Origin: Obrimoposthia wandeli
Taxonomy: Eukaryota
Reading direction: 5' to 3'
Length of the DNA: 64,000 nucleotides
Assembly: GCA_977020255.1 (NCBI GenBank)
Contig: CDROCS010000004.1
Location: 62,001 to 126,000, forward strand
The notes under the pieces were generated by a model. It was not told where the DNA came from and made no database searches. It was given only the letters and a program-made list of their open reading frames with translations. Each line of letters begins with the position of its first letter. Position 1 is the first letter of the stretch. This document shows positions 3,885 to 35,300 of the stretch, in pieces. Both the position numbers and the translations under genes were made by a program.

Positions 3885-3966
3885 TAAATATTTAATAAAA
3901 TGTTGTTATTGTTATAAACATGTACTTATTCTGATATATTTATTTTATATTAATATTTATATATAA
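3796..3966 (+). CDS. Small 56-aa ORF with hydrophobic C-terminus
   Basis: Manual translation MVKQRFRIFKK...HVLILIYLFYINIYI*. Its TAA overlaps the ATPase ATG (TAATG). Positionally equivalent to the 90-aa ORF of element 2. Confidence 0.35.
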   Translation: MVKQRFRIFKKMEEVSSGGFIQRPNILMFNKYLIKCCYCYKHVLILIYLFYINIYI

Positions 3967-4613: not shown

Positions 4614-4614
4614 A

Positions 4615-5028: not shown

Positions 5029-5189
5029 TTGTCTTAATAACGAAAATTATAATAATATTAAATAATTACATTCTTTCGTTTTATACAAACATATAAACAG
5101 ATTAAAAATATATTTAACTTTTATAATAATGGGGATAAACAATACAAAGTTGTCTAACTTATTTATAAATTTTAATTCTTCATGCTGCA

Positions 5190-7228: not shown

Positions 7229-7271
7229 ACAATATAAATATATTTAAAATATAAATATATATATATATAAA

Positions 7272-7675
7272 ATGAATACATCAATTATAAAATTTTATAG
7301 CAAAAGTCAACAGGGCGGTGAACTTCCCTATTTCATTGGTAAACAATATGGATCTGGTTGGTATCAAACTATTTCTAGATTAGCTATTCCATTTATTAAA
7401 AAAGTTGGTTTATCAGCAGCTACAAGTGCTGCAAATGTAATTGGTGAAACGGTAGGAACTGCGTTAACAAACCCAAAACAATAATTTCATCTCTCAAAGA
7501 AAATACAATCAAAGAAGTCAAAACTTTGATTCCAAAATTAAAAAATAATGCTGTTGAGAGTTTAAATAAAGTCGCAAATTGTGTTGAACAAAATGGAAAG
7601 GGTCTTAAACGTAAAAGAAATAATTTAAATAGTATAAACAAACGTCTTAAAGGTACTATTTTCCAAAATGACTAG
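7272..7675 (+). pseudogene. Conserved small Polinton virion protein (QxGG / QYGSG motifs, amphipathic helix), frameshifted
   Basis: [18 protein letters not shown]... A frameshift at an A run near 7476 continues as TIISSLKEN...KRLKGTIFQND*, collinear with the intact homolog at 23341-23718 (ends GTIFAK). Confidence 0.75.
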
Positions 7676-8888: not shown

Positions 8889-9261
8889 AGTAAGCTTATT
8901 GTATATTATATTCTTTATTTAAATTAGTACTTTAGAAATTCATAAATCCGGAAAAATATTATTGAATAACAAATTTAATGGAGTATATTCATTGGATAAA
9001 ATTCCATCATTAAAACCCGGAGGTTACATTATCAATACTCATACTTCAAATCTACCAGGCGAACATTGGATAGCAATATTCGTTGACAGATTCGAGATTC
9101 GAGTGTTTGATCCTTTTGGATTCTATTATCCTGCAAAGTTGGTGTCTACACTTGAAAAAGAAAACATTCCAGTCTACTATAATCGAGTTAAATGTCAGAA
9201 TCCATTAACTAAAAACTGCAGACCTCTGAGTCTTTTATCGTTGAAACTTCAACACAAATAA
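8885..9261 (+). CDS. Adenain-like cysteine protease, spliced join(8885-8889,8928-9261)
   Basis: [14 protein letters not shown] (His), FDPFG (Asp), Q.P.T.NC (Gln/Cys). A 38-bp GTAAGC...AATTAG intron supplies the ATG that overlaps the MCP stop (ATGA). Spliced ORF 112 aa. Confidence 0.85.
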
Positions 9262-9312
9262 TTTTAAGTATAAACAAATATATCATTATAGTATTTCATT
9301 TTATTTTTTCAA

Positions 9313-9765
9313 ATGGCTTTTATTGATTTAGAATGTTTTATTGATAATAATGGAGAATATATTCCAAAGGAATTATGTATAATGTATGTGAATGATATGA
9401 CTTGTCCATTTCATTACGTGTTTAAAAATCAAATACCATGGAGTAGTTTATCATTTACAGTTAAAAGAAAAAATCTATATTTGATAAATCATCATCATCA
9501 GTTATCCTGGTTTGAAGGTGAAAGCTCTGATATTCATATTGATGATGTTGAAACAATATTCTATGTTATGGATTCTATTGATGGAAAGAAAATTAATTTA
9601 GTGAAACGAATGTTTCCAAATTTGAGAATTGTGAATTATAATAAAAGTTTCAAAAATTTAAAGAAAATGCCAAAAAATATTCGATGTCCGTTTAGAAAAC
9701 ACGGAAAACATTGTGCTTATTTGAAATGTTTTTCTCTATGTATTGATTATGTAAATTGTATATAA
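9313..9765 (+). CDS. DEDD/DnaQ-like exonuclease-fold protein with C-terminal Cys/His cluster
   Basis: ExoI-like FIDLECF, IPKEL, HHQLSW..G and terminal CPFRKHGKHCAYLKC. Resembles a small ORF family I recognise from invertebrate Polintons; the fold assignment is by eye. Confidence 0.55.
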   Translation: MAFIDLECFIDNNGEYIPKELCIMYVNDMTCPFHYVFKNQIPWSSLSFTVKRKNLYLINHHHQLSWFEGESSDIHIDDVETIFYVMDSIDGKKINLVKRMFPNLRIVNYNKSFKNLKKMPKNIRCPFRKHGKHCAYLKCFSLCIDYVNCI

Positions 9766-9870
9766 ATATATTTATTAAGGATATTTTATTTTAATATATA
9801 ATTTATGTTATTTAAATAAATTTTACCATAATTCTTTAGATGTGTAAGCCTGGAAAAAAAAAACTTTGAT

Positions 9871-10025
9871 CTAAATTTTCACATAGAATAGTATGTGTGT
9901 GATTACGTAATACATTCTTAACTGATAAGAGTGAACTTTAGTATAAATTTCACATAAAATATTGTGTGTATGATTACGTCATACATTCTTAACTGATAAG
10001 AGTGAACTTTATCCTAAATTTTCAT
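9871..10025. repeat. About 71-bp tandem duplication in the subterminal region of element 1
   Basis: GATTACGT(A/C)ATACATTCTTAACTGATAAGAGTGAACTTTA occurs at about 9901 and 9972. Confidence 0.9.
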
Positions 10026-10027
10026 TA

Positions 10028-10373
10028 TGGACTAGATCACAAAAAGAAGGGTGGAGACTAAGCCACTTGATCCTTTGAATTAGTAGTTAGCCAAAAAGAA
10101 GGGTGGAGACTAGACCACAAGAGAAGGGTGGAGACTAAGCCACTTGACCCTTTCATAGTGGTATATCATAAAAAGAAGGGTGGAGACTAAGCCACTTGAC
10201 CCTTTCATAGTGGTATATCACAAAAAAAAGAAGGGTGGAGACTAAGCCACTTGACCCTTTCATAGTGATATATCACAAAAAGAAGGGTGGAGACTAAGCC
10301 ACTTGACCCTTTGAATTATGGACGACCATAGATTATAGCCAAAAGAAGGGTGGAGTCTAGATCACTTGACCCC
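10028..10373 (+). repeat. Seven copies of an approximately 30-bp core (period about 50 bp) in the terminal region
   Basis: AGAAGGGTGGAGACTAAGCCACTTGACCC(T) starts near 10041, 10093 (truncated), 10121, 10170, 10225, 10277 and 10341. Confidence 0.92.
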
Positions 10374-10412
10374 CTCACCCTCTCCCTCCCCTCCCCCTCC
10401 CCGCCTCCTCCT

Positions 10413-10541
10413 CCCTAAAGGGTGTCACACCATAAGGATGTCTTGCCACACCATACGGGTATATGTTGCCTCACCGGAGGTGAGGCAACATATACCCGTA
10501 TGGTGTGGCAAGACATCCTTATGGTGTGACACCCTTTAGGG
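10413..10541. repeat. Perfect palindrome, 63-bp arms with 3-nt loop (GGA)
   Basis: 10413-10475 is the exact reverse complement of 10479-10541, checked base by base. Confidence 0.97.
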
Positions 10542-11307
10542 GGGGTCAAGTGGTCTAGACTCCATCCTTCTACCTACTTGTTTACGTGAAATAAATATAT
10601 TGGAAAATCTTCTTTGAATACCTTTAAATAAATTTTGAATAATATATTTTAAATTTGTATTTATTTGCAAAATTACCTCGTGTATTCTTTTTTCTAAAAT
10701 TTTTCCATCAACATAATCTGACATTAATTACAAAACATTCTCTATGATATTAACCCATTACTTCGGGGTTTAATTTTTTCAAAAGTTCTTCAAAATTTTG
10801 CATATTATAGCTATTTGTGGATACCCTTAAATATACTAAACACAAAATTATTATATTTACACTATTCAGCATAAAATTAATAATACTATATCGAAAGAGT
10901 AAATTGAAAATGAGTTCTTGAAAGCTACTGATGAATCGAGAGTTATTGTATCTCTAGCTTGTGAGTTCTTAAAGGTATTGGACTTGTGTGAATGTGACTG
11001 TATGCTGCTGCTATTTATATGTGGATCCGTTTTTATTGTTCTCTCTTTCTGCCACGTTGCATCAAGTTTCTCAACACTGTCACAGTAAAAATGGTGATGA
11101 CTTTTACAGTTATCAAGGTCACCTGATGTTAATTAACTCACTTATTGAAAAAATTAAACAACCTTTTTTCGTATTTATTATTTCCCCTAATTTAATTTCA
11201 ATTTATTGACAATTATACTATTTAAAATTAATTGAATTAGTTGTGGTACAACAAGTGTACAATAATCACATAAATTTATGTTACATTAAACCATCTTTAA
11301 TCTGCAG

Positions 11308-14300: not shown

Positions 14301-17300
14301 TGCATGCGCGTTATCACGGACCGATTCGTTGAACAGACAGACACCAACTGGTTCGACAAGATGCTCAAGGTCATAGGTAAGTCATCCGATTAGAAAATCG
14401 GACGGATTTTGAGCAGTTTCAGATAGATTAATTTAATTAATATGTGATAACTTTTACAACTAAACATATAATTATGACTTAAATTTGAATCAAATAATGA
14501 TTTATAAAACATTAATATTTAAATATTTTGATAAATTAATTTATTAATGAAATTACAATCAGATATAACGTGAAATATGATCAAAAGGAAATCAGAGGGC
14601 CAACAATTAAGAGAGCTTTAAACCATTTATGTGATTAGTTTAAACTTACCGACGATGATGATGTATATTACTGAGACTAAAACTACCCTGTTCTGGTCGG
14701 TGAGAGCCGGTCCAGGTAAGAGTGAGAATTTAGTCTAACTATATGTCTCGAAATTTTGATCTAGTTTAAGGGTTCTTATAGAGTACCCAAGTAATCATGG
14801 CGGTCTTTGAATTTTTTTGCAAAATTAAATTTTCAATAGCTATCATTATTAATGGATTACAAGAAACCCCTAGTATGTGTACGTGTATGTTAGTATTAGT
14901 ATAATTTCGTACGAATGCATGTGGAATTGCATGTGCTTCGGAAATTAATATTTTAAAATATTCTGGATCAATTTGTTGAAAGATCAGCAAGAAAAAGAAA
15001 ACAGGTTTAAGTAGCTATATATATATATATGTACAGTATCGGTATTTCAGTATTATTTTGTTTCATGCTAATTAAATTAATTATTTGTTACTACTTTAAT
15101 TACTTAATTTGTAATGTTAATGTAATAAATTGTACGAAATAAAAGCGTGCAATTCGCTGTGAAATGTCGAGGGGCCAAAAGAAACTCGAAGCTTAGGAGT
15201 CTTGTCATATGCTAGTGCTGCAATTTCGTACGCGTCTCAACCTACAAGTCAAGTTTTGGAACAAGTGATCAGGGAGACACTTTTTATTTGCCAACATGAA
15301 TTTTTGTGATACGAGAAATTTCCAGTAAAATGACGAATTGCGTGATCTGATCGAATTTAATTTTGTTGTCTTAACAAAATTGTATATTAGCAAAGCAAAT
15401 TTAGCAAACTGTTGGGCAAATCGTCACTACATTCAACCTGGTAGATATTTAGATATATAGTCATTTCGATTCAAGAATTAAATGACAAACGTCCAGAATA
15501 TGCCAGAGATGACAGAGTGATTGTTCATTGTAAATTGCCAAACATAACCAAGAAATATTGTATCTTCTTCGATAGGATGTGCTATTATCCAGATAATGTT
15601 CCCATTAATTCCTTTTTTCTATCAATGTACTCATTCGTTTCAGATCAACACTTCAATTTTTTATGATGGCTTTAAGGTTGAACAGCTTTAAAATAACGGC
15701 TTTTTGTATCTGAAAATCAATTAATTTTTTAAAAATGAGAAAATATCTGATCCAGAGATGAAAAATATTTGTTGAATAAAATTTTGTTGATTTATTTTAT
15801 TATTAATATTATAGTTTATTTTAAAACAGCAGAAACTTATTCTAGTATCAAAATTATTTCAATGATATTTTAAAAGTTCAAAAGTAGACTCAGGGATATT
15901 TCTAATTATTCTAATATAAAGAATTTAAACAGGAAAGTAAAATTGAATTAATTGAATATATTAAAGAATAAAAAATAAATAAACATATTTTTGAAAAACA
16001 GTGTTGACCATGTTAATTATATACCTTTTATAAATTAATTGATTACTTTATTTTATATTAGTTAATTTATCGACAGTTGATGACATTTTCAAAATTCATT
16101 GCAGGCGAAGAGGACTGTGGTGAGGCTGCAGTAGCTGAAATGGAGGAGGAGCCCTACTTCATAGATTTCTTGCGCGACGCTCCAGAGCCCACTGGAGAAG
16201 AGGCAGAAGATGCAGACATGGAGGCGCCTAAGATTTATGAGCCAATTGAGTCCTACGAGCAGTTGGCTGAGCGACTGATGGTGATGATGTCACTCTACAA
16301 CGAGTCCATTCGCGGTAGCAAGCTGGACTTGGTGTTCTTCAAGGACGCGATGACGCACTTGGTGAAGATAAGCCGCGTCATTCGGACAACGAAGGGTCAC
16401 TCTCTGCTGGTGGGCGTAGGCGGCTCCGGCAAGCAGTCACTCACACGCTTGGCTTCCTTCATTGCCGGCTACGAGACCTTCCAGATTGTGCTCACCAGGT
16501 AAGCTCACCGTAACAGTCACCGAGCTAAGAAGAGCTTCCTTGAAGAAGATGATTTATGTAGCAAGAGTAATTTTGATTTCATTAATTGTTTTGATGATGT
16601 TTCGATGGATTTTAGCTTTAAAATTGTTAACATTTAGCTTCCTATGCAAATTAGCAATCGAACTGTTAACTGAGGAAAATATCAAAAGTGTCTCAAGATT
16701 ATTCGGTTAAATAATTCACGTCATATTTTGAGCCCATATTCACATTTAATGACATTTTCAAAACTAAAATGCACTTAACCTCGGATTCAGTACACCATAA
16801 AATAGAAAACACCATAACAGGGCTACATAACAGTTACAATATAAAAATTAAAGTATTTGAAATTAAAACAAAATAACATTCATGATAAAAATATTTTTTA
16901 ATAAAATATAAATAAAAATGTATAATATCATTCGCACATATTTAGTTGTGACAAATACACAACTACAAGATTACATATCAATATCCAATCAAACTATTTA
17001 TCTTCCAATAATAAACGTTCTCAACCCAGTAATCAATCGAAAATTAAACACCTTTGACAAATGTCGAATGTATTTGTCATTCAAATCATATTTACCACTG
17101 CTCGCAACTACGTCATTCGTACATTTTAGTTATGGTAATGGTAAAGAGTGAGATTGGATATTGATATGTCATGGTGTAGCTGTGCGGTTTCCATAACTAA
17201 AAACGAATGAGTGATATTACAAATTTATATTTCTATTCTATTAAAAATATCGTATAATGCATGTGATTTGTGTCTTTTTTGTAAATTTATTGGGAGAGCA

Positions 17301-20300
17301 CGCTTTGAGATATTATTGTTCTTATTCGTAATACTTTCAAATTTATTTTGTAACAGTTAGGTATTCCTGTTTTTGCCAAACAAAGAGATGGTGTTTTCAA
17401 TTTTTCTCAAGTAAACTGAATATCGGGTATTTATTGTTTGGGTTTGAATGTGTAAATGAATTAAAAAATAAATGTTACTCCTTACAATCTTTATATTGTA
17501 TGGGAGGATATTTTTTATTTGAAAGTATTAGTTTGTTTTCCTTTGAAACTTTGTGTGGAACTTAAGATTATTCGAAATTAATTTAACACCGTTATTTATC
17601 ATTGCAGTAGCAGTGACGGGTAAAGGATTTTATTTCATCACCTGTTTCACAGTTCACATATTTTCATGATTTTTTATTAAAATTATCTACATAAAAATCT
17701 CTCTTCACAATCAAAATTTTGGTGAAAAATGTTTAACATATTAATATTATTGGGACGCTGTAAAAGGAAATTGCCGTTTGTATACATTACGCCGTCCACG
17801 GAGCCTAGAAAGAGAAGAAGGCGAAATATATATGTTATATAGTATTATCATTATTTAAATGTTAGTTGGTGGAAAAGTTTATTTATTAAGGGAGAGCACA
17901 GGCAGATTTAAAATGACATTTGTATTTCATTGACTTCCAATTAGTATTTTAAACTGGATTAATACACTTAGAAATTAATTATTGTTGTTAATTTTATCAT
18001 TAGTAAGTAGGTGGATGTGTCCGGTCTAATCCACACCCCCTCCACCCCCCTGTCCTTTAAAACCGAGCATGTGTGTGGAGTGAAATTTCGTGTAGGTGTG
18101 TGGAGTGAAATTTCGTATATGTGTGTCTCCATCCCGCCCAAAGGGGGAAGGAAGGGGGGGGGGGTACCCCCCACCATATTTGTTAAACTTTTACCATGAA
18201 TCTCAAAAGTGGTTAGAGAAGACCACGAGAATCCATATTGACCCCGGCGACTTTTCGCAGACGAGATTTCAAATATTACTACTATTTTTAAGAAAGATTT
18301 TAGATTAATAAATTACTACATGTTAAATATCTATGTCAGTTTTAGAATTTAGAGGAGAAAAATCGGTCAGATCTATATAATTTAGAGGAGCAAAAACAAA
18401 ATACGAGACAAAATTATTTTTCAAAATATTTATTAAACATAAAACAACATATTGGCTTCACTCAAAGTCCAGAGAGGCTGCATTTTCCCGTCATTAGCAA
18501 AATATCCATTCAGACGTATTGAGATATTCCATAGTTCTTCATCTAGAATTGGAGCAATCAAATATCCCAGATCATCTTTAAAATCCAGACTGGGATCAGT
18601 TTCAAGCTCGAAACAATTTCCTTCATATACATAATCAGAAATGTAAAAGCCCAAAATATTTTTCAGTTGATCAAAATCAGTTGTTGTTAAAATTTCGATG
18701 AGATATTTTTTCTCCACTTTTGATATTTTCACAGGATTCATAATTCGTATAATTTGATGCCTCTTTAATATATTACATAGTTTTCCTTTTGAAATTCTTT
18801 CTGGATAATAAAAATTTGCTACACATCTCATATCCATTCTAAAATAAGGAAACTGATTAAAAACAATGTTTATAAAAAAATACACATAAGATACAAATAA
18901 GATACAAATAAAACTGATTATTAAATGAAAGAAACATAGTAAAACCGATTACAATTTATTACACACAAAAGTTAAAACATAGAAATATGAGCACGTTCAA
19001 TTTTCCACATAGGCAACTTTGTCCCCATTTCATCTTTCTTGTAACCATAAAGTCGAATTGTTAGAGTCCATTGCTTCTTTTTCGGAAACGCATCAATATC
19101 AACATATCTTCCATAGTCATCTAGAAATGCTTCATCGGCTCCTCGGATATAAAATTCGTTCTTATTGAAAGTAAAATTTGGAACTGCCTTTTCTATTTTC
19201 TGTTTAAGATATTGAAAATCAGGTTTTTGAATACCTGATAGATAGTAGCTGAACTTTCTTCTTTCAATTGTCACAGGATTTACTAAAGCAATCAGTTTAG
19301 CCTTCTTCAAGAATCTGACTTTGTATTTGAAATATTGTTTCACTTCTTCATACATATCCTTATCCGATTCTTCAAACATTTCTTCGTCATCGCTTAATAC
19401 CCGTTGGCTATCGTCCATCGTTGATAATTGTCTTTGATATGAATGCATTTACTGTGATTTGTCCTCCAATGGCGCATTCTTTTATACTAATTTCTAACAA
19501 AGACAAGAATCTCATTGGTTAATATAACTAAAGCATTGAATTTGATTGGACTAAATCTATATTAAAAATCAAAATTTATTGGAAGAAATATATCATCCAA
19601 TTATAATAGGTTTGCAAGATAATTACAAGAAACGTGCAATAAAAAGCAGGTTCAGACATATATAAAGAAGATTTTACAGAATACAATTTCAGTCTAATGA
19701 AACTCGTAAATATAAATTATAAAGGTAGAACAGAAGATGATGTTTCGTACTTACCATTCAATGAATGGAAGCCGAGACAATATGTAGAAAAGTTTGACAA
19801 TTTCACAGTTGTTATGTTTCCTACAGGTTAGTTTTTTATTTTATTTTCATATTGAATTCTTTAGGAAATTGTCGTGTTATGGGATGCAAAATACCAATGC
19901 TTGGGTTCAATTTACCATTTGGAATTCAAATCACTGCAATACAATCAATCACGATTTCGGCTAATCTCGGGAAACAGATAAATATTTTTAAAACTGCAGA
20001 GAAAATGAAAGAAGAATGCATGTTTGAACCAGAAATTTTTCCTGCTCTCAGTTATTTGAAGTTTAAACCGCTATGTGTAAATATATTTTCCAGTGGTAAA
20101 GTTATGATATTGGGATTGAAAAATTTTGATTATCCAGACATAGTTGATTTGATTTTAGAAAATATATCTTATTACATCTTGTTATCTTTTCTATAAACAA
20201 ACCCGTTTAAACTTATTGTTTTGAATGAATAATACTATAAATAGAGACAATGAAGTGGATCGGCTTGCCGATGAAATTTTTTCTGGAAAAATTAGGGTTA

Positions 20301-23300
20301 AAGAAATTTTATCAGAATTAAAAAATAATGATATAACAAGAGATAACATTGAAATATTGGTTAGATCTCACGTTATTCGAGAATTTAGAAATCGTACACA
20401 AATAAATAAAATTATAGCCAAATATTCATTAATTAATTTTTGTATTTCATCTACAATAGCTCTAACATTGTACATTTCAATAAGGAAACTTCTATGATAA
20501 TATAAACAATATTAAAAATGAAAGAGTATATGCAATGGAGCTAAATAATAATGCTGTATTTCAAATAGTTGGCCCAAGTGGAAGTGGAAAGACACATTTC
20601 GTCTGTAAATTGTTGCAAAATGAATCTCTTTTCAAATCTAGTTTCAAAAATATTTATTGGCATCATGGTGGAGGAGGGGAAAGCGGGTTAACCAAAACAG
20701 AAGTTTGCAAGTTGAAGGGTATAAAATTTATTGAAGGATTTGATGCAAATTGGTGTGAAAGATTGAAAAAAGAAGATGTAATAATAATTGATGATTTGTA
20801 TGAGGAGGCTAACAAGGAATCGGACTTTAATAATTTATTTACAAAGATTGCAAGACATCGTGAAGTAACAGTTATATTTATCACTCAAAATCTGTTTCAC
20901 CAAGGAGGTCACCATAGAACAAGAAATCTTAATGTACATTACTTAGTTTTATTTAAAAATCCTAGATATCAAACAGTTGTTGATTTTGTGGCCAGACAGG
21001 CATTTTAGAATGTAGGAATGTTAGTTTAAATAATCAATTATTACCAGCAATGTTTAGGGACAACTTACTAGATACCCATAAATATCCCGCTAACCATCCT
21101 CTACACTCTATGAGTTTAAAGGACATTATCGGGAAATTTAAGGATGAAAGCGAGGGACAGGTTTCGTATGATGATTGTATTTTCCTACGCCCTAAATGCT
21201 ACAGTTTACAATGTAAACTTTACATGCATCTAATAATACATGTTCAATGAGAGCAAAGGGTGTGGGAAGAAACAATCTTACACATGAGGCCTACCGGAAA
21301 GTTTATGATACTGGGTGTATTGAAAACGTTGAGCAAAGTAGATTTATTTCAAGAGCCCATCAACTGTATTCCCATAAATCAACCAAAATCGCTTTGAGTA
21401 GTAATGACGACAAGCGCTTTTGGGTAGAAAAGAACGCTAGCCTGGCTTATGGACACTTCAGAATTTAAACGGTTTTCATTTTTTGATTTTTTTAGTTTAG
21501 TTTTTTAAAATTTTAGATCCCTATGGCACCTAGACTCTAACTTATTTGTTATTTCAATACGTTTTTTTAGGATGGACCTTATCTTTGCTGACATATCTCA
21601 TTGTGATGTTGTGATTAATAAATGTATTAAAAACAATTGTCTTATGTCTTTTATTATTTTACCCTTATATTTTTAGAGATTTAAAAAATAATTCAAAATA
21701 AAACATTTAAATTTTTTATTTTTATAACACACTAATTGTTTTGCAACGATAACCATTAAATACATAAATGTCCACAGTTTCTCGTCGCAGGATCCTGATA
21801 TTGTATCTTGTTGTAAAATACTCTTCTTCGTCCTTTTTGAATAGTTGAAACAAGTTTGTGTGGATAATACATTGCAAGTGGATCAAATACATGTATTGTT
21901 CACTCTCTAACATAAATAGCTATCCAATGTTCTCCTGGTAAATTCGAAGTATGAGTATTGATAATGTAACCTCCAGATTGAAAAAATGGAATCATATCAA
22001 TAGGATAAACTCCATTGAATTTATCACCCAGGACCTTCTCTGCTGATTCTTTTACTTGTTTTGAACTAAATAAAAATTAATAAATATAAATTTAAAATAT
22101 GTCTTACTCCATTCTATAATATGACAGTTCTGTTTTTATTGATTTGTATTTCCGAATCAAATACTCCGTAAATAAGCACCGTAGTAGGATGTGTTAAAGC
22201 TGCATTGAACTTAATTTCTAGTCGTAAATTTTCATCCTTTGGTAGTTGGCATTGGTTTATATCAAAGTCTGGTGCCAAAACGAATGTGAAGAACGGGCAG
22301 CTACTTTTAAACTCAGTGAAAGAAATACCATTGTTTATATTTTTATCTAGTTGACCCAAATTTCCGAATAATAGATTGGGTATAAGCCAAAGCATAAGCG
22401 TTACCTTCGAAATCTGTTTTATATGTTTCACGATAATCAGTATTTCTTGAAAGTGTCACTGAACCTACACTAAGATTGTCAAATTGAGTTGCATCTGTCG
22501 TATAATTTCCTAGAAACTTTGCAGTTTTTTGAAAAGAAATTAAAATGAATTTCGGTAATCTTACATCACCAAAAATTTGATCCTTATTAAAAGCTTGTGT
22601 ACTCGTACCTAAAGAATAAGATATAAGTTTAGTTTCTCTAATAGGATAACAAGCATTGTTTTTTTCCATTCCTATATTATGTGCCATTAAAACTGATTGC
22701 TCGGTTATAACTCTTCGAACATACAATTTTGCATTCAAAATATCAAGTCTAGGTTTTAGAATGTTCGTGCTTATCAAAGAAAAATTCCATTTATTACGTT
22801 TCAAACGAAAATGTACATTAACACCGGGAATTAAATATTTCGGTTGTTCAAAGAAATTCAATCTCAAAGACCCACACATTTCGTAAGCTTTAGAACCTGC
22901 AATCCATTCTTTGCGAGTTGCAACAGTTTTACCATAACCAATGGTTGCCAAATTAGTATTTTGAGTATCAGTACTATAATTCAAAAGACTTTCAATCAAA
23001 GCTTTATGAGCATAGAAAGAATTTCCACCTTCAATTTTGACATTATTAAGAGTAACAATTTCATCATTAAATAAAGAATTAAAGAGATAATTTACAGGTG
23101 TTACATCTGCATTTTCATCTAAATTAGTACCATCCCGATTTAATACTTTTATTTGAACATAAAGCAAAGTATCATTCAAATCTAAATACTCGCTATTGGA
23201 ACCATTAATATTAAATTCTAAATCGGTTAAAGTGGTTCCTGAAACTGAGTTAACTAGGAATATTTCTTCAAAGGAAGCATTATCTACAACTACTTGTGGA

Positions 23301-26300
23301 AGCGGTTTATCAAAAATACATAATTCAGTTTTGGCGCAACTCATTTTGCAAATATTGTTCCTTCAACATTCTTACGTTTGTTTATATTAATTTTTAGCTT
23401 CTTTTTACTTTTAAATCCACTACCTCCTTGGCTTTTATTTGATTTACGTTTTCTAATCAAATTAGCAACTTCAGGTAAAACATTATCAAGTTCATCAAGC
23501 GCATGCTTCTTAAAAGTTGGTATTAGTTTGTTGTCCTTAGATGAAAGGTAATCCTTTCCTAATTTTGATATAAATCGCCCGAGTCTCTTTAAAAGAGGAA
23601 AGGCAAATCTACCTAATGTTCTAAGCCAGCCAGATCCGTATTGTTTACCAACAAAATATGGTAATTTTCCACCTTGTTGGCTTTGACTATAAGCTTCAAT
23701 TATTGCTGGATTCGCCATTTTGTTTTCTTAAATGTATTGTTAAACTTGTCTTGGCCACGTACGTGAAATCTATTAGTTGTCCAGAATCATCTCTAATATA
23801 TACTTCAATATTGTTTATAGAAAAGAGAGAAACTGGAAGATACATTGGTTGATCTATACACATACCGACAGCGTCCCCATCTCTAGTTTCATTTTTAGAA
23901 ATCCATATTGTTCTCAAAAGTGGAACTCGCTGTCCTCCTACAAGCGTTGGTTCTATTCTGCTCCAATTCTGATCAAAGTTTTTAATAAATGGAGTAGAGC
24001 TAATTTTCGAAATTCGAACATATTCGTTTTTCTTATATTTTGCTTTTTTTAATTTAATCTTTTTTATTCCTGTTCATCCAAATGTCCATAGAGTTTTTAT
24101 TAGTAACATCAACAGGTCTCATTCCCTTGAGACCTCTATGTTCAGAGTGATTATATGCATGTATTATTTTAGGTAAAACTTGGATCCATTTTTTATTTCC
24201 TTCTTTTGTGAAATACTTTTTTATTCGATCTCTTAGAGTACGATTAAATCTTTCTACTACTGCTGCTTTGTATTGTGAAAACACAGAGTAGTGATTTATA
24301 TTATTTTGTTTAAATAATGATTGAACTTGCTTATTATAAAATTATTTTCCTAAATCAGTTTGCACTTTTTGTGGAATGTCCTCTTTTAATATTTCTTTAA
24401 TGGCTTCAAGCATAGCTATTGAAGACTTTGCTTTAACTGGAATTGCACGAGTAAACCTGCTAAATACATCAATACATTTTAAAATATATCGATATCCCTT
24501 ATTAATGGAAGAATATGGGATCATCTCCATCGAATCCATTTGCCATAAATTATTAGGACCGCTGGTTTTGTAAGCTCTAGTTGGAAACCTTCTTCTCATC
24601 GGCTTGTTCAGACTGTAGGCTAACTGGTCGCTCAGCCATTTCTGCGTTTTCTTGTAATTTTGTTTTGTTCTTTTTGCTAATTTTGAAACTCCTGTGTAGC
24701 CAATTGGATCTTTTGGATTGAACCATATCTTCTCCATTACAACAATTTGAATAGAAAGAAAATTTAAGTTTAGGCAAAGAAGGGCTAGCACCCATATCTT
24801 TAGCTGATTTTAGAAATAATAGTTTATGAACGTGTCGCAGCTATAATACTACTGATAATTGAAGCAACAACTGGAATAACAGCCCCTATGAAACCACCAT
24901 TCTGTTTAAGAATAATATTTCGTTTCCTTTTTTTACTTTTTACATTAGCAATATCTAGAAGAGTTTTTCTATATTTCTTTAATATATTTTTCCGATTTCC
25001 AACTTTTACTCGACCCAAAACTATATTATACAAAACTTCCAATAAATCATCTACAACAAAGGATGGAAATGCTTTAAGAATAATCATTCTCTTATTAGAA
25101 GAAGCTTTGACTAAAGTTTTAAAATAGGGTATGCTTCTTTGTATTTTCTTCATTTTAATAAAAAAGGTTTAATTTAAATATTGTTTATATTCGAAGCCAT
25201 TAAAGTTTTTTTTTATTTTTAACTACAGATTTGATTAATTTTTTCACTTCTTTTTTCTTAATGATTCTTTTTTTTGATTTCTTAGATTTTACTTTACGTT
25301 TTACTATCAACTTTGTAAAAGGCATTGGGAATTTATTTTTTATAATTGTTCTCTATTTCTTTATAAACAGTTACTCCCTTAGAATTAAATATGTCTGTTA
25401 AAACACGTAAATCATCTGGGCAAGCTTGTGTAAAGTCAATAAATATATACCCATGTGCTTGTTTAGCAGCATCATGGAATGAATCAACTAGAAAGTTCTT
25501 ATTTTGAGGAAATGCCTGTCTGGCCACAAAATCAACAACTGTTTGATCTCTAGGATTTTTAAATAAAACTAAGTAATGTACATTAAGATTTCTTGTTTAA
25601 TACATTTATTAATCACAACATCACAATGAGATATGTCAGCAAAGATAAGGTCCATCCTAAAAAAACGTATTGAAATAACAAATAAGTTAGAGTCTAGGTG
25701 CCATAGGGATCTAAAATTTTAAAAAACTAAACTAAAAAAATCAAAAAATGAAAACCGTTTAAATTCTGAAGTGTCCATAAGCCAGGCTAGCGTTCTTTTC
25801 TACCCAAAAGCGCTTGTCGTCATTACTACTCAAAGCGATTTTGGTTGATTTATGGGAATACAGTTGATGGGCTCTTGAAATAAATCTACTTTGCTCAACG
25901 TTTTCAATACACCCAGTATCATAAACTTTCCGGTAGGCCTCATGTGTAAGATTGTTTCTTCCCACACCCTTTGCTCTCATTGAACATGTATTATTAGATG
26001 CATGTAAAGTTTACATTGTAAACTGTAGCATTTAGGGCGTAGGAAAATACAATCATCATACGAAACCTGTCCCTCGCTTTCATCCTTAAATTTCCCGATA
26101 ATGTCCTTTAAACTCATAGAGTGTAGAGGATGGTTAGCGGGATATTTATGGGTATCTAGTAAGTTGTCCCTAAACATTGCTGGTAATAATTGATTATTTA
26201 AACTAACATTCCTACATTCTAAAATGCCTGTCTGGCCACAAAATCAACAACTGTTTGATATCTAGGATTTTTAAATAAAACTAAGTAATGTACATTAAGA

Positions 26301-29300
26301 TTTCTTGTTCTATGGTGACCTCCTTGGTGAAACAGATTTTGAGTGATAAATATAACTGTTACTTCACGATGTCTTGCAATCTTTGTAAATAAATTATTAA
26401 AGTCCGATTCCTTGTTAGCCTCCTCATACAAATCATCAATTATTATTACATCTTCTTTTTTTCAATCTTTCACACCAATTTGCATCAAATCCTTCAATAA
26501 ATTTTATACCCTTCAACTTGCAAACTTCTGTTTTGGTTAACCCGCTTTCCCTCCTCCACCATGATGCCAATAAATATTTTTGAAACTAGATTTGAAAAGA
26601 GATTCATTTTGCAACAATTTACAGACGAAATGTGTCTTTCCACTTCCACTTGGGCCAACTATTTGAAATACAGCATTATTATTTAGCTCCATTGCATATA
26701 CTCTTTCATTTTTAATATTGTTTATATTATCATAGAAGTTTCCTTATTGAAATGTACAATGTTAGAGCTATTGTAGATGAAATACAAAAATTAATTAATG
26801 AATATTTGGCTATAATTTTATTTATTTGTGTACGATTTCTAAATTCTCGAATAACGTGAGATCTAACAAATATTTCAATGTTATCTCTTGTTATATCATT
26901 ATTTTTTAATTCTGATAAAATTTCTTTAACCCTAATTTTTCCAGAAAAAATTTCATCGGCAAGCCGATCCACTTCATTGTCTCTATTTATAGTATTATTC
27001 ATTCAAAACAATAAGTTTAAACGGGTTTGTTTATAGAAAAGATAACAAGATGTAATAAGATATATTTTCTAAAATCAAATCAACTATGTCTGGATAATCA
27101 AAATTTTTCAATCCCAATATCATAACTTTACCACTGGAAAATATATTTACACATAGCGGTTTAAACTTCAAATAACTGAGAGCAGGAAAAATTTCTGGTT
27201 CAAACATGCATTCTTCTTTCATTTTCTCTGCAGTTTTAAAAATATTTATCTGTTTCCCGAGATTAGCCGAAATCGTGATTGATTGTATTGCAGTGATTTG
27301 AATTCCAAATGGTAAATTGAACCCAAGCATTGGTATTTTGCATCCCATAACACGACAATTTCCTAAAGAATTCAATATAAAAATAAAATAAAAAACTAAC
27401 CTGTAGGAAAAATAACAACTGTGAAATTGTCAAACTTTTCTACATATTGTCTCGGCTTCCATTCATTGAATGGTAAGTACGAAACATCATCTTCTGTTCT
27501 ACCTTTATAATTTATATTTACGAGTTTCATTAGACTGAAATTGTATTCTGTAAAATCTTCTTTATATATGTCTGAACCTGCTTTTTTATTGCACGTTTCT
27601 TGTAATTATCTTGCAAACCTATTATAATTGGATGATATATTTCTTCCAATAAATTTTGATTTTTAATATAGATTTAGTCCAATCAAATTCAATGCTTTAG
27701 TTATATTAACCAATGAGATTCTTGTCTTTGTTAGAAATTAGTATAAAAGAATGCGCCATTGGAGGACAAATCACAGTAAATGCATTCATATCAAAGACAA
27801 TTATCAACGATGGACGATAGCCAACGGGTATTAAGCGATGACGAAGAAATGTTTGAAGAATCGGATAAGGATATGTATGAAGAAGTGAAACAATATTTCA
27901 AATACAAAGTCAGATTCTTGAAGAAGGCTCAACTGATTGCTTTAGTAAATCCTGTGACAATTGAAAGAAGAAAGTTCAGCTACTATCTATCAGGTATTCA
28001 AAAACCTGATTTTCAATATCTTAAACAGAAAATAGAAAAGGCAGTTCCAAATTTTACTTTCAATAAGAACGAATTTTATATCCGAGGAGCCGATGAAGCA
28101 TTTCTAGATGACTATGGAAGATATGTTGATATTGATGCGTTTCCGAAAAAGAAGCAATGGACTCTAACAATTCGACTTTATGGTTACAAGAAAGATGAAA
28201 TGGGGACAAAGTTGCCTATGTGGAAAATTGAACGTGCTCATATTTCTATGTTTTAACTTTTGTGTGTAATAAATTGTAATCGGTTTTACTATGTTTCTTT
28301 CATTTAATAATCAGTTTTATTTGTATCTTATTTGTATCTTATGTGTATTTTTTTATAAACATTGTTTTTAATCAGTTTCCTTATTTTAGAATGGATATGA
28401 GATGTGTAGCAAATTTTTATTATCCAAAAAGAATTTCAAAAAGAAAACTATGTAATATATTAATGAGGCATCAAATTATACGAATTATGAATCCTGTGAA
28501 AATATCAAAAGTGGAGAAAAAATATCTCATCGAAATTTTAACAACAACTGATTTTGATCAACTGAAAAATATTTTGGGCTTTTACATTCCTGATTATGTA
28601 TATGAAGGAAATTGTTTCGAGCTTGAAACTGATCCCAGTCTGGATTTTAAAGATGATCTAGGATATTTGATTGCTCCAATTCTAGATGAAGAACTATGGA
28701 ATATCTCAATACGTCTGAATGGATATTTTGCTGATGACGGGAAAATGCAGCCTCTCTGGACTTTGAGTGAAGCCAATATGTTGTTTTATGTTTAATAAAT
28801 ATTTTGAAAAATAATTTTGTCTCGTATTTTGTTTTTGCTCCTCTAAATTATATAGATCTGACCGATTTTTCTCCTCTAAATTCTAAAACTGACATAGATA
28901 TTTAACATGTAGTAATTTATTAATCTAAAATCTTTCTTAAAAATAGTAGTAATATTTGAAATCTCGTCTGCGAAAAGCCGCCGGGGTCAATATGGATTCT
29001 CGTGGTCTTCTCTAACCACTTTTGAGATTCATGGTAAAAGTTTAACAAATATGGTGGTGGGTAACCCCCTTCCTTCCCCCTTTGGGCGGGATGGAGACAC
29101 ACATACACAAAATTTCACTCCACACACCTACACGAAATTTCACTCCACACACATGCTCGGTTTTAAAGGACAGGGGGAGGGGGGTGTGGATTAGACCGGA
29201 CACATCCACCTACTTTAGTATATTTAAAAAATAATTAACACCGATTATATGATAGTAACTGACCTCTTAGGCGGGGTGCAACGATTTAATTTAAAAAAAA

Positions 29301-32300
29301 CAATACTTGTGTAGGCTACTGGCTGATATTTGAGATTCCCTGAGTAATTTGTAACGGCTAATACATAGAAGCTGCTGGTAACAAGATTGATTGGGTTTAG
29401 TAAATAAAGGTTCACCCTCATGGGATACGTTATCTCTGTTAATTATAGTTTTTTATCTACTTTACCTTAAAAATTATTATATTTGAAAAATTTAAGGGAC
29501 TTGTAGAAAATATTTCCATTCAGCATCTTTCATAATATTATAGAAAAACGTTTTAAACAATTAATTCACAAATTTTATTAAAAAATAAAGCTTATAACCT
29601 TATGGATGGATATCAATTATGTGTAACAGTAGCAAAATAAAGTATAACATAGAAAAAGATATTTTTTGAATGTTTCCAATTGATTTGTCATTTGATAATA
29701 ACATTTAATCACATTTGAGTAATATACTGCATGGTGTTGAAGGTCGTATTTACTTTATATACGTTACACGTTTCTGTTTTAACGTGTAACATTTGATCCG
29801 TATATTTTTGTCTGAACTCTAGCCGAAATTTTGTCGTTTTACTTGTTTATTATTATTATTAAATCAGAATTTAGGAAATTCAACTCTTAATTTGTTCGAC
29901 TTTAACAATTCAAATCAATATTGTTTCATTTTCTTTGATTATCGTGATATAGAATGAGAGGCTGAAATGTTTTAACAAGCACTAAAATGCTTTATGTTGT
30001 GTGCATATGTGTATGAAGTATGCGTATGTAGTTGGTCAATTGGACATTGTTTTGTGTGTGTTGTCAGTATGTCAGACATGTTATTAAATTTCCGTTTTGC
30101 AGTTAATTGACGAAATAGAGAAGATATGATGCAATTAGTTTTGTCATATTTGTGTTGTAAATAAAATTTTAAAAATGTCTATATTATTACAGTTTTATGA
30201 GTGTTTTCATTGAGGCTGTTTTATGATCTTCCATTGATTGTTTTTATTTAAGATATTCGTAACATATTCTAATGTTGATTTGCTTGTTTCCATTTTGTAT
30301 AGTCCAAATGGGTACGTGCACATGACTATTTTCACAGTTTGAAATTTTTGAACGTCACAATTTGGTATGATAAAATAATTTAAAATAAACCCACATTCAA
30401 TTACATAAATCAAACTGTATTTCGTGAATTGTTAGGAATAGAGGTTCTAACAGATATTTTGAATCACCTCTATATATATTGAAATGATTCACGTATTTTG
30501 AGAGTGAATTTTCACGATCTATTGTTTTTCTTATCGAAAGACTTTTTTGAACATAATTCCAAGGTTTTATTATAGGTTATCCTAATTTTTTGATATATGG
30601 TCAAGAATGTACCGCAAATTTTTCTACTTATTTGGATGACCAAAGACGTGTACCCCTGCAAAAGTGACATTGACGAACAAGATATACTTATCATATATAG
30701 CAGAGGTATTCAAAACATGGTACAACAAAAGCTTTTTACAGAACGTATCAACCCAGTCTACTGCACATATCTCCCTACCCAAGAATGTGAATTGTTAATT
30801 GATTTGCGGAATAGATTCCAGTCACAGTTTTCTCGTTTAGTTTAGGTTTATTTTGTTTATTATCTGCAAGTCACGCTATTTGAAGTTATTCGATTTAGCA
30901 ATGAGATGCATACTTCCTCTTGTTTATGTGAAACTAGCTTTTCCCACTACAATACAATGAAGAGCAAACTAATTAGCCGATTGAAAGCGAAACCCTGCAG
31001 CTCTGCTATAAACATAATAAAACTCAGCAAACATAATAAAAATTTGTGCTCCTCACTAATATGGGTACCAGTTATTTGTTATTTATTCTGTGTGCATATT
31101 TAGTAAATATTAAATATATTACATTTGCATGTTTGATTTGCCTTATCCTTATATTTTTTTAGCATGGATACTAGTTGGGAATTAAATAGACGATGTGAAT
31201 GTTAGGGAATTGGTATACCGTAATGGCATTGGGCCCCTCCTGGGCGTCATGGCTTTAAAATCAATAGGGACGAGTTCCACCACCGACCTTTGAGTGGAAT
31301 TTTGGGGAGGATTTGTCAGTACAAGTGAAATTAGGATCACAGTTCAAACTGACACCCAAATTATATACAAATCTTTTGCCTTACAGTTATGTTAAACAAA
31401 TATGGTGTTAAATATTTTCATTTTTTAACATATATATTCTAACTGTTTGACACACACGCGGGGTCATATTATCTAGTCCGATGTGGTTCCCCCGTCCATG
31501 ACGTTTTCCAACTATTATAAAAATGCTTATAAGCTATCACAACATGGGATCTTTTTATAGTTAAATCTGCATATTGGAAAACATAAATATCTTAGTAACC
31601 TGATGACGTTTTAGCTATTGTAAATTTTCCAAAATAAATTCTAAATAAACCTAGTATGAGTCAGAGAGCGCACATATTAGAGTGTCTGTACGCTTACGAC
31701 TGTATAAGTTACAGATATTGATTCAACAAAAAATCAAGATATGTTTTCATGGTGTACCAAGCCCTACACTCTTGAATTATTCGTTTAGGCACAGTCTGAC
31801 TGTTAGTTGACTTTACTGGCAACAAAGATAACAACATCGAGTGTGAAGTCGAACTAAAAAGTCAAGGATCACGTAGGTGCAGTGACAACTTCAGACGAAG
31901 AAGTAGATAATGCAAACAAAGATATTGATGAAGATATACCATTTCAATTTTACTTTAGTGAATAAGTTGGTTCCGCAGTCGTTGCGAGATGTGGTACTGA
32001 ATAATGGCAATCTGTCGAAGAGACGAGTCGTGGTCAATGTGATATACATGCTTATACACTGCTGAACTCGTTTCCTGTTATTCCTGAAGAGATCATAAAC
32101 GTTTCCCTGATGAACACTAACATTAGTGAGCGATTCTTTTATGAAATAACACCAATCTGAACGAGATCATATATATTTGAACTGGCGAGAACGTTTCTAT
32201 ATGTTTACTTTTTTATAAATACATTCATACAATGCCTCAAGGCGCAACTTATTCTCCCAGAAAACATTATTAGGCATGTGATTCCAATTGAGAAACACTT

Positions 32301-35300
32301 TGGGCAGTTGAAAGCTACATTGAGGTTTCACGACTCGTTATGGCACGACCGTACATTCATATGAACATTTTCTATTGACGAGATCCTCGTCGAGTTTCAT
32401 GAAGGGTTATCTTCAGGCAGTGCATCCCAACTAAACCAAGTAAGAATCAATGTGTAACTGGGTAATGTAAGCAGAGACTGAAACCTCTCTAACATGTATC
32501 ATATGAAACAGAAAAGACGCCCTCGAAGAAGCAGAAAATACGAAACACGCAATCACGTTCCTGGTTTTTGGAAGGAGAACGCAACATTACGACTGACAAT
32601 TGATTCAGCACTGATTGGAAGAGTGAAAGCGAGTGCCATGAGCCTCCCAGCGGTTGCCAAATCAATTGACGGACGTCAACGTTGAAACACAAAATATTTG
32701 TAATACAGCAAAGCAACTCTCTTTTCCTTCTGAGACAAAGTCAACATGCTGGTGAATGAGATTTTCACGGTGCACAGTGCACTTAGATTAGGGGAAAAGT
32801 GATATAATTGAGTTCTATAATCAGACAAAGTCTGGAGCCGACACAATAGATAAAATAGTTCAGAGCGCAAGTACAGTCGTTTGCGGACTGATTAACTGCA
32901 GTGTTTATTTCTGCTATCATTTATGGGATCAACGACAAACTATGAGGGGAAATATTGGCTATGAACCTTTTCTTTCAATAGTTTGTCTTGATTTTCCCGG
33001 GCAACAGTTGCTACAATCTTCTGTACGTGCTCTTAAAAAATCAAGAGGCTATTTATGACTAAGGGTTTCTAACTGAATGTCCCGCATGAAATGCCAACGC
33101 TGCAGTTAACTTGTTTATTTGAATTATAATGTAACTATGTTCTCCTCTCACCAGTGGTACAATATAATTCTTGTAACTAAAAACTAGTAACTGAATATGT
33201 ATTAAATTTTTATTACACTTTTGGTGCTAATATTCCGGGTGATACATATTTTCTACTTTCTACCATCATTTGTAACATAACGATGTCTCTGATGGTACTA
33301 AAAGTCGGTTAAACTAGTGTAAATTTGTGATGGGAGCTAATTAAGGGTCAATTTGAACTATACTAAAATTCATAGAGATATGTAGGCTTAAGACGACAAA
33401 AATTCCCTCTAGTCTGTAATTTCCGATTGAGATGGCTTCATTTTAAGTTGGAAAAACTGAAAGCGGCTCTAATACATCCTAAACTTTGACGCTATCCGAT
33501 CATCAAGGATATTAAAATCCAAGAATGCTCATGGGAACTGTAATTTAAATCGCTTATTATTGTAATGAACTGAGAAATAATCTTACCTTCGTTGCAGGTC
33601 GTACAACGTGTCGAATCTGATGGAAGACCTGAAGTCACTATACCGCCACTCTGGTCAGCAAGGCAAAGGCATCACGTTCCTGTTCACCGACAACGAGATC
33701 AAGGACGAGAGTTTCCTGGAGTTCCTCAACAACATGCTCAGCTCTGGCGAGATTGCCAACTTGTTCGCTCGTGATGAGATGGACGAGATCCTCCAAGAGC
33801 TGGTTGGTGTCATGAAGAAGGAGCATCCGCGCCGACCACCCACAAATGAGAACCTCCAGGTAGGTCGTACGTTATTCTTATAAACACTAAATATGTCTAG
33901 CAGTATTTGCGATATATCTTGTAATCAGTGAATAGGTCAAAAAACTATATAAAGGCTGTTTCAAAATAACTGTTACAACTTCATTTCCTAGTAATTCTCG
34001 AAAAACAGTTTGTGTGCAATTTATTTTTCAAATTTTATATATTAAATAAATCAATTTTTGGATAGATTGAACTTTGTCATATAGTGATACACGATATTCT
34101 ACTTTCAGGAGTACTACATGAGCCGCGTGTTGCGCTATCTACATGTAGTCATGTGTTTCTCTCCCGTGGGTGAGAAGTTCCGCAGCCGATCGCTGCGTTT
34201 CCCGGGTCTAATCAGTGGCTGTACAATCGATTGGTTCCAGCGTTGGCCACGGGATGCCCTCATTGCCGTTTCCGATTACTTCATTTCCTCATTCGAAATT
34301 GTCTGCTCACCTGAAGTCAAGAAGGCTGTAGTCAATACTATGGGCACTTTCCAGGCATGTGTTTGCTATTGAGCCTTACATCCTACTAGAGAGATGTCAT
34401 GGGGGCAATTCTATCTAAATTTTTTTTAATTTCAAAAGTTAATCTCTCCTAACCGTGAAATATTTTTACAAAATATAGTAAATCTTTATTCAATTTATGC
34501 TATATTTAAATTTCAAATTATAAAAATATAATCATGAAACTTTACATGTAAAAATGTAGATGAGAGATCTTTGTGGCGCACTATAGTTTGTGTGTAGGGC
34601 TTCAATTGAACTTCACATATAATTTGTGGCCTTGCGTGAAAACATTAAACAAGAAGGCTAATCGCCAGATTGGTCAAACATCAGTTCTGATAAAATACGG
34701 ATTAACCTATGAAAACGTCAATTTTTTTAATTGAGTTTTTCATATGATTATTTTTATTATTTTAGTTTTCACCTTAAACTTATTTTCAAACAAATTAATT
34801 TTGCATTTTATTATTAAGAGTGGATAATAAATTAAAATTGCATCAAACAGGTCTTGGATGGAAATACGTAACGTAAACATATAAATTGGTGATGAAAAAT
34901 AAAGAGCAAGTCCTGGCGGAAGATCATTATGAATAAGAGTTTATTTGATGGATAATAATAATATTGTTATGTGTGATAATGATGTTGTAAAATATGCAAT
35001 TCGACATTTTGTGTCAGTTGTTTTAATACTGAGTTGTGTTCTGTATGTGTAAATAATAGAAGCTTTAGTTGTTTTCCTCATAACAAATGCAAGAAATAGC
35101 ATGCTAATAATCGAGGACGGAGATTTTCTAAAAATGAATAAAGATTCATTGATTGTGTTCGTCAACATCAAATATTCAAGAACCTAACGCTATTGAACCG
35201 CATATGCGATGCGGATTATGAATAAAATAATTTAATTCATATTATACCTTAATAAAATGAAAATTTGTATTGTACAAAATCAAAGATTTCATAATGTACA

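Follow-up and report, generated by a model that had tools for sequence, protein, structure and literature searches.

How does a Polinton come to end, on both sides, in inverted arms of 3.6 kb that carry genes? The question is raised by an element of 11,209 bp at positions 18006-29214 of a 64,000-nucleotide stretch of Obrimoposthia wandeli DNA (assembly GCA_977020255.1, contig CDROCS010000004.1, positions 62,001 to 126,000 of the forward strand). This stretch is called the window below, and coordinates are counted from its first letter. The arms make up 64.6% of the element. The uneven age of the arms, the lesions that they have in common and the nonsense codons in the DNA between them together say that DNA was copied between the arms after the element had begun to decay. 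The explanation that we consider probable is that a decaying Polinton had its arms extended, in the chromosome, by repair for which the inverted repeats served as template. The element and its setting are as follows.

16499-33597, plus strand: 17.1-kb host intron of a DNAH5-like axonemal dynein gene, holding the element (defined by flanking exons and splice sites)
18000-18005: left target-site duplication, TTAGTA
18006-21631, plus strand: left inverted arm, 3,626 bp (self-BLAST and global alignment)
25596-29214, minus strand: right inverted arm, 3,619 bp (self-BLAST and global alignment)
29215-29220: right target-site duplication, TTAGTA

Self-BLAST of the window gives a single long inverted pair (18005-21631 against 29215-25596, 99.23% identical over 3,629 columns, with 17 mismatches and 5 gap openings), and global alignment of the arms gives 15 substitutions and 6 indel events, the identity being 99.2-99.4%. 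A first-pass annotation of this DNA had described the arm coordinates, a coverage of about 65% and the list of arm genes correctly, as judged by these alignments and by Pfam. It had also reported TTAGTA at both ends, and this is indeed a perfect target-site duplication (TSD), matching at 6/6 positions (chance about 7.6e-4). The termini of the element read AGTAG...CTACT, the first 30 bp at each end are perfect, and the inverted repeat stops at the TSD. The exon upstream of the intron covers DNAH5 as far as residue 2983, the one downstream begins at residue 2985, the splice phases match, and the dynein exons are collinear and contiguous across the element. A read-level fold-back chimera, which the first-pass annotation had named as a finding that would overturn it, is excluded by the flanks, which show no inversion, and by the dynein exons, which continue in phase and without a break. 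Two elements inserted tail to tail were also considered, and are ruled out by the single TSD and the absence of internal termini.

Arm architecture and junctions

Each arm contains open reading frame (ORF) A, ORF B, a TBP-like gene, a 90-codon ORF, the 5' part of an A32-like ATPase gene and the 3' end of pPolB. The whole element can be written as the string R' d' p C d p' d R, where the prime denotes inversion, R runs from the terminus to the middle of the ATPase gene, d is 88 bp of ATPase sequence, p is 626 bp with the pPolB 3' end, and C is the structural centre. The repeated segments, with the two junctions J1 and J2 described below, are these.

20918-21005, plus strand: segment d, left-arm copy (self-BLAST and alignment)
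26222-26309, minus strand: segment d, right-arm copy, the same as the left copy at every base
25510-25597, minus strand: segment d, central copy, starting at J2, one base unlike both arm copies
21006-21631, plus strand: segment p, made up of the pPolB 3' end (21006-21468) and intergenic DNA, with a frameshift near 21215-21220
25596-26221, minus strand: segment p, inverted copy, which interrupts the right ATPase and equals the left copy down to the frameshift

Only about 460 bp of the pPolB 3' end is kept, twice, with the frameshift in common. Segment d is present in three copies. At its one variable base, the central copy agrees with the ATPase motif of a second, different Polinton found at window positions 1-10578 (the neighbouring Polinton), and the arm copies are derived there. 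At J1 (21005/21006, mirrored at 26221/26222), the ATPase is joined to pPolB directly after the position of the DTDS motif. At J2 (25596-25597), the end of p meets the start of d; the two overlap by 2 bp, and imperfect similarity extends beyond. The right ATPase is split by the inverted 626-bp pPolB piece, with duplicated d on both sides, and given this interruption and the three copies of d, two non-homologous junctions are needed. Judging by the gene order, the simplest parent would be one in which pPolB converged on the protease gene. The threefold ATPase segment went unnoticed in the first-pass annotation, as did the uneven divergence of the arms and the intron in the TBP-like gene.

Two ages of the arms and the decayed centre

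The differences between the arms are not spread evenly, and divide each arm into two tiers.

18006-18801 (mirror about 28427-29214): old tier, non-coding terminus and most of ORF A, possibly the native terminal inverted repeat; 11 substitutions and 3 indels in 796 bp
18802-21631 (mirror 25596 to about 28426): young tier; 4 substitutions and 3 indels in 2,830 bp

The substitutions are clustered outwards, with 11/15 in the outer 796 bp (Kolmogorov-Smirnov p 3.3e-4), and a change-point is located at 18802 (p 3.5e-4, 20,000 simulations) with a support interval of 18787-18984, around the start of ORF A. A uniform age for the arms is ruled out by this change-point. Divergence per copy is 0.69% in the outer tier and 0.07% in the inner tier. 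The clustering persists from ORF A inwards when the G/C-tract terminus is excluded (p 0.004), and composition is not the cause of the step, because ORF A has 6 differences in 405 bp while the adjoining 611 bp of similar GC content has 1. Five of the six base differences in ORF A change an amino acid, and they look neutral. The innermost 865 bp of the arms has no differences at all, and a third, still younger tier there is only suggestive (p 0.08, with the boundary chosen afterwards).

The first-pass annotation had proposed a copy-back genome that formed in one step and was then integrated. Stated in that form, the proposal predicts even divergence along the arms, and does not survive the change-point. 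The arms diverged unevenly, and therefore copying between them came after the outer parts had diverged. Two lesions, the derived base in d and the frameshift in p, are common to both arms, and this damage therefore preceded the copying.

The centre (21632-25595) is read on the minus strand. Its genes are homologous to those of the neighbouring Polinton (47-76% amino-acid identity) and of L001, a contig from a metagenome-assembled genome (MAG), and are listed here in the order of transcription.

25333-25597, minus strand: ATPase 3' part, 73% identical to residues 128-211 of the neighbouring Polinton's ATPase
24824-25153, minus strand: conserved basic ORF of 109 aa between ATPase and integrase, 47% identical to the neighbour's 137-aa ORF, with a match in L001
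23960-24737, minus strand: RVE integrase remnant, with a nonsense codon at 24342-24344, a frameshift near 24060 and the C-terminal part lost
23720-23962, minus strand: 3' end of the penton-position (minor capsid) gene, 57.5% identical over 80 aa to the neighbour's gene
23341-23718, minus strand: conserved ORF of 125 aa between the penton and major capsid genes
22114-23344, minus strand: double jelly-roll major capsid gene, with one frameshift near 22358
21732-22112, minus strand: adenain-like protease gene, with a 42-nt GT-AG intron at 22066-22107 and nonsense codons at 21900-21902 and 21756-21758

The centre thus has one nonsense codon in the integrase and two in the protease, and frameshifts in the integrase and the capsid gene. 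Three nonsense codons are more than would be expected from the whole-arm rate (0.26, P 0.002) or the inner-tier rate (0.09, P 1e-4), and agree roughly with the outer-tier rate (0.86, P 0.056). No complete frame is present for pPolB, integrase, ATPase, capsid or protease, and the element is most likely inert, to judge from these frames. It is a defective Polinton derivative, as had been suggested: the footprint is of the normal integrase type, pPolB is incomplete and the integrase is broken.

The identities of the central genes are supported to different degrees. The integrase remnant matches Pfam rve with E 2.8e-7, just under the cut-off, and is 67% identical to the neighbouring Polinton's integrase. 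The penton-position remnant (80 codons) has homologs in the neighbouring Polinton and L001 and no Pfam match, and its name comes from its position and not from its fold. Comparison with the neighbour suggests that a deletion of about 1 kb fused the integrase to this gene. A lysine-rich frame of 50 codons (25200-25352) lies upstream of the 109-aa basic ORF. The capsid frame gives an AlphaFold2 (AF2) model with pLDDT 85, which aligns in VIA with the capsid of Paramecium bursaria chlorella virus 1 (PBCV-1) with Z 19.0 and root-mean-square deviation (rmsd) 3.2 over 288 residues; a capsid profile run against PDB sequences gave 0 matches. There are 208 capsid relatives at E<=1e-20, the best having 55-59% identity. 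Among the 120 relatives listed, 74 were aligned and 40 of those 74 were used to look for erosion at conserved capsid sites, which was uninformative (7/100 sites in the element, 8/100 in the neighbouring Polinton, 0-9 in the 40 relatives). The protease is 54% identical to an ORF of the neighbouring Polinton that itself matches Peptidase_C5 with E 0.004, below the cut-off, and the element's own 58-aa protease piece has no Pfam match.

Growth of the arms by repair, and the alternatives

Under the chromosomal repair account, a Polinton with terminal inverted repeats (TIRs) of perhaps 0.8-1.0 kb would have inserted intact into the dynein intron, creating the TTAGTA duplication, and would then have decayed neutrally. 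The old tier, about 0.8-1.0 kb including ORF A, may represent this native TIR. Later breaks or stalled forks would have been repaired from the opposite arm, or would have switched template to it, with synthesis running past the end of the homology. One such event would have copied the inverted end, with its SSB (binding protein for single-stranded DNA), TBP-like and ATPase genes, over most of pPolB, and another would have placed an inverted copy of p in the right ATPase between duplicated d segments. Two orders can be envisaged. One-sided copying from the TIR may have replaced most of pPolB (creating J1), after which repair of a break near the base of the new stem would have used the left arm as template, run through p and ended in a join 88 bp further back (creating J2). 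Alternatively, a two-switch insertion of p' into the ATPase may have come first, creating J1 and J2, to be followed by gap repair between the TIR and p homologies that overwrote the pPolB side. Both orders fit a single copy, and would leave the TSD untouched without a helper. The 2-bp overlap at J2, with imperfect similarity beyond it, speaks for repair in the chromosome.

Several observations weigh against this account. No parent or sister copy was found among the sequences compared: the closest capsid relatives are only 55-59% identical, and a word search with ORF A gave no close match (0/4 candidates significant). Both relatives, the neighbouring Polinton and L001, have pPolB diverging from the structural genes, unlike the parent proposed above, and an SSB gene was not detected in either of them. 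The nonsense-codon test counts 3 events only and assumes a simple mutation spectrum. The inner-tier differences resemble sequencing error, 3/4 being G/T transversions and the 3 indels lying in homopolymers. The age of the non-coding terminus (5 substitutions in 427 bp) does not exceed that of ORF A (6 in 405 bp), and arms of at least 0.8 kb with gene content must therefore have existed roughly when the element inserted. If arms of 3.6 kb were already there, a late gene conversion would produce the same two tiers. It is worth adding that a scan of a collection of genome contigs produced 3 loci from 76 stretches, none with an SSB match or an inverted repeat.

The likeness of terminus and ORF A is what would be expected if the long arms were already present at insertion, as in a copy-back defective genome. 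Here the template switches at J1 and J2 would have occurred during protein-primed strand-displacement replication, and snap-back on p/p' would have given identical 3.6-kb arms; the product would have been integrated by its own, then intact, integrase or by that of a helper, and would have decayed before a single later conversion of the inner 2.8 kb. A single replication path of this sort, switching twice and snapping back once, would indeed yield the string R' d' p C d p' d R; neither the TSD nor the outermost 30 bp at either end has a mismatch, and the number of events is no higher than for repair in the chromosome. We nevertheless consider this origin unlikely. It needs an extra conversion tract, which would have to reach the inner end of the homology and carry the two common lesions, and no second copy of any junction occurs in the window. 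No report of a Polinton copy-back genome was found in a literature search that left most subscription papers and Repbase outside its scope, while repair-driven extension of TIRs has precedent. That the fold-back arose extrachromosomally during a single replication round of the Polinton, by two template switches and a snap-back on the 626-bp repeat, was integrated with a normal TSD and acquired its young tier by later conversion strikes us as rather doubtful. The helper integrase postulated by the first-pass annotation is not required by anything seen here, the TSD being equally well explained by an intact element whose integrase decayed later.

The error-like character of the few young-tier differences would also suit a fault in the assembly. 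The true locus would then have TIRs of about 0.8 kb and the p' insertion, and a wrong bubble branch would have duplicated the right arm and dropped the 5' part of pPolB; the young tier is in fact bounded by two repeats, the TIR and p, as a bubble would be. We think this improbable: J1 and J2 are novel joins with short overlaps at most, which an assembly graph could not invent, and the window has no N and has a 135-bp hairpin and tandem arrays resolved, which suggests an assembly built from long reads. Two tiers would be expected too from a mosaic of family copies, either a young fold-back with the outer 0.8 kb of one arm taken from a diverged member or an element remobilised from a decayed donor, and similar chimeras are reported for Galileo (PMC3573991). 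This strikes us as more improbable still. The ORF A differences mostly change amino acids (5/6), unlike variation between functional copies, and the central nonsense codons exceed the age of the inner tier (expected 0.09, P 1e-4) unless all of them are older than the insertion.

Gene content, neighbouring sequences and known systems

The genes of the arms are as follows.

18433-18837, minus strand: ORF A, 134 aa, putative OB-fold single-stranded DNA-binding protein, paralog of ORF B (fold taken from that predicted for ORF B)
28391-28795, plus strand: ORF A, right copy, with 5 amino-acid differences from 6 base differences
18972-19448, minus strand: ORF B, 158 aa, predicted T7 gp2.5/Enc34-type OB-fold SSB (AF2, VIA, Foldseek)
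27780-28256, plus strand: ORF B, right copy
19697-20196, plus strand: TBP-like gene with a 38-nt GT-AG intron at 19827-19864 (Pfam TBP, E 1.8e-11, above cut-off)
27031-27530, minus strand: TBP-like gene, right copy, intron 27363-27400 (start coordinate taken from the mirror alignment)
20225-20497, plus strand (mirror 26730-27002, minus strand): 90-codon ORF with a hydrophobic C-terminus
20535-21005, plus strand: A32-like packaging ATPase, 5' part, cut at J1 (Pox_A32; 76% identity to the neighbouring Polinton's ATPase)
26222-26692, minus strand: ATPase 5' part in the right arm, which has two one-base indels of its own, near 26551 and 26462

ORFs A and B are tandem paralogs (26% identity, E 4e-11) with 28 remote matches among 1.84 billion representatives, 27 of which were aligned, a repetitive protein of 3,921 aa being left out. 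With these 27 relatives in the alignment, the AF2 model of ORF B has pLDDT 88. Its best VIA match is 1je5 (Z 7.6, rmsd 3.2, 110 aligned residues), and the top four rows, T7 gp2.5, the Enc34 SSB, DUF2815 and CP312R of African swine fever virus (ASFV), have Z scores of 7.6-6.5, which are middling. Foldseek also places Enc34 and ASFV CP312R at the top (E 0.04-0.08), with no PDB row at E<=0.001, and finds 29 BFVD matches at E<=0.001, the named organisms among them being large DNA viruses. That ORF B is a gp2.5-type single-stranded DNA-binding protein is thus a supported prediction. The likeness of ORFs A and B to the T7 gp2.5, Enc34 and ASFV CP312R proteins lies in the predicted OB fold of ORF B; they differ in having 9-13% identity, a middling Z and two tandem paralogs. 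Pfam finds no family in more than 2 of 30 members of the A/B alignment, and an Atlas search with ORF B gave a best score of 0.89, with a Pox_I3 lead at 0.87. The A/B gene family, with its approximately 27 remote metagenomic relatives and no Pfam match, was not detected in the neighbouring Polinton or in the contigs L001-L003.

The doubled block therefore reads SSB-SSB-TBP-ORF90-ATPase-5'-pPolB-3'. The first-pass annotation had called it a regulatory module, a description which does not suit two predicted OB-fold single-stranded DNA-binding proteins standing beside TBP-like and ATPase genes. The ATPase scores 28.8 bits against Pox_A32 (cut-off 22.8), and the 90-codon ORF gave no family, its best Atlas score being 0.83. 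The TBP-like gene has 17 database relatives with 42-52% identity, and related viruses have already been given a TBP label in a figure legend (PMC8502044). Short TBP-like genes of about 150 aa recur in this Polinton clade at differing positions (3330-3884 and 19697-20196 in the window, about 10246-10640 in L001).

Two genes of the element have introns, which would be spliced to judge from the sequence. In the TBP-like gene, exactly one split codon separates the abutting exons in 15/15 relatives that match both exons (17 were tested, and 2 have no match to one exon), and the 38-nt intron is lacking in the neighbouring Polinton and L001. In both Polintons of the window, a GT-AG intron interrupts the protease gene behind the fifth coding base (22066-22107, 42 nt; 8890-8927, 38 nt), where the L001 protease start is uninterrupted. 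The literature search, within the scope given above, found no description of spliceosomal introns in Polinton genes. These short introns and the SSB assignment may matter more to specialists than the fold-back itself.

The neighbouring Polinton, which runs off the start of the window, has 65-74% nucleotide identity to the fold-back element in matching genes. Its pPolB is on the minus strand and diverges from the TBP-like, ATPase, integrase, penton-position, capsid and protease genes and a 150-aa ORF, and pPolB, the penton-position gene and the ORF after it are broken by stops and frameshifts. An Endonuclease VII-like segment (PF02945, E 6e-7) is found at 977-1705, ahead of the polymerase domain of pPolB. 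The last bases of the neighbouring Polinton are CTACT, at 10578, and about 0.7 kb separates them from the first dynein exon seen; this terminus has the same 7 end bases as the fold-back element. About 35 bp inside this right terminus is a near-perfect palindrome of 135 bp (10410-10544, 96%), preceded by tandem repeats of 52, 71 and 77 bp (9872-10312); template switching at a Polinton end may have produced this palindrome as well. The Polinton-type contigs L001 (1-12666) and L002 (465-4905) come from bacterial MAG records, probably through binning contamination, and L002 seems to hold two tandem penton-position genes.

The DNAH5/8-like axonemal dynein heavy chain gene spans 11300-60690 on the plus strand, with many exons. 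Its introns contain a degenerate palindrome of about 400 bp (16871-17269, 68%) and a degenerate inverted repeat with 80% identical arms of about 160 bp (52720-53353), both probably relics resembling miniature inverted-repeat transposable elements. An ORF at 56819-57253 presumably resembles the acidic N-terminus of a piggyBac-type transposase remnant.

The locus illustrates that Polinton terminal repeats are able to gain kilobases and take in genes, with the junctions and the age step directly readable. One consequence is that TIR identity, which has been used as a sign of recent mobilisation (PMC12220804), cannot date the insertion: inner and outer parts of the arms differ tenfold in apparent age, the inner being the younger. 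Since the element is intronic, the dynein pre-mRNA would carry a near-perfect 3.6-kb hairpin directed at the SSB, TBP, ATPase and pPolB sequences of Polintons; silencing small RNAs might arise from it. The model of Polinton replication rests largely on inference, and a copy-back origin, if true, would make this locus a fossil copy-back defective genome of an animal Polinton, and would give physical support to strand-displacement replication through a panhandle and to helper/defective dynamics.

Copy-back or snap-back defective viral genomes have long complementary ends, have lost the polymerase and retain the origins. The element is like them in these respects; its arms, however, are of two ages with pseudogene lesions in common, and it fits only with a later conversion. 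A closer parallel is the '2RT' form of Galileo in Drosophila mojavensis, where internal sequence adjoining the TIR is duplicated in inverted orientation at the other end of non-autonomous copies, and where break repair copying past the TIR has been proposed for the extension (PMC3573991). The element agrees with what this type of extension predicts, the added part being younger than the terminus (0.07% against 0.69% per copy). Galileo belongs to the P superfamily, and its extensions are of hundreds of bp, with TIRs up to about 1.26 kb (PMC3573991), whereas the present element gained 2.8 kb that includes whole genes, and shows two non-homologous junctions and an age step that can be measured. 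The same paper cites a 2007 review for inverted-repeat expansion in Polintons (PMC3573991), and Polinton TIRs are described as driving rearrangements in situ in C. elegans (PMC11414722). TIRs of up to 2.3 kb are given for endogenous mavirus-like elements (EMALEs), of which truncated copies are still flanked by TIRs that 'must have regenerated' (PMC8547959). Automatically called TIRs of Polinton-like viruses (PLVs) reach 4.4, 7.2 and 8.4 kb in three protists, the medians being 0.34-0.62 kb (PMC12220804, Table S3). Both are virophages or PLVs of protists, and the comparison with them is by TIR length only (PMC8547959, PMC12220804). No description of an animal Polinton with multi-gene fold-back arms was found in the literature search, within the scope given above.

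In its TIRs with AG...CT ends and its 6-bp TSD, the element is like the Polinton/Maverick group (PMC8097293, PMC10748475), and it has remnants of pPolB, RVE integrase, A32-like ATPase, adenain-like protease and double jelly-roll capsid genes. General ranges given for Polintons are about 13-25 kb in size and 100-1,500 bp in TIR length (PMC8097293, PMC10748475), although one source calls the TIR length undefined (PMC11131425). Intact vertebrate Mavericks are described as 12.7-24.6 kb long and intronless, with TIRs of 46-1,447 bp (mean 402) (PMC8097293); the element is 11.2 kb long, has two intron-bearing genes and has arms of 3.6 kb, which the first-pass annotation had rightly called far longer than usual. 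It further differs in having five genes or gene pieces inside each arm and only the 3' end of pPolB left, and, from an autonomous Polinton, in having no complete pPolB gene and no intact RVE integrase. It is accordingly filed as a defective Polinton derivative, not as an autonomous Polinton nor as a demonstrated defective-interfering genome. It is an unusual, explainable relic rather than a new kind of element, and represents extreme overgrowth of the TIRs in a dead Polinton, probably made in place.

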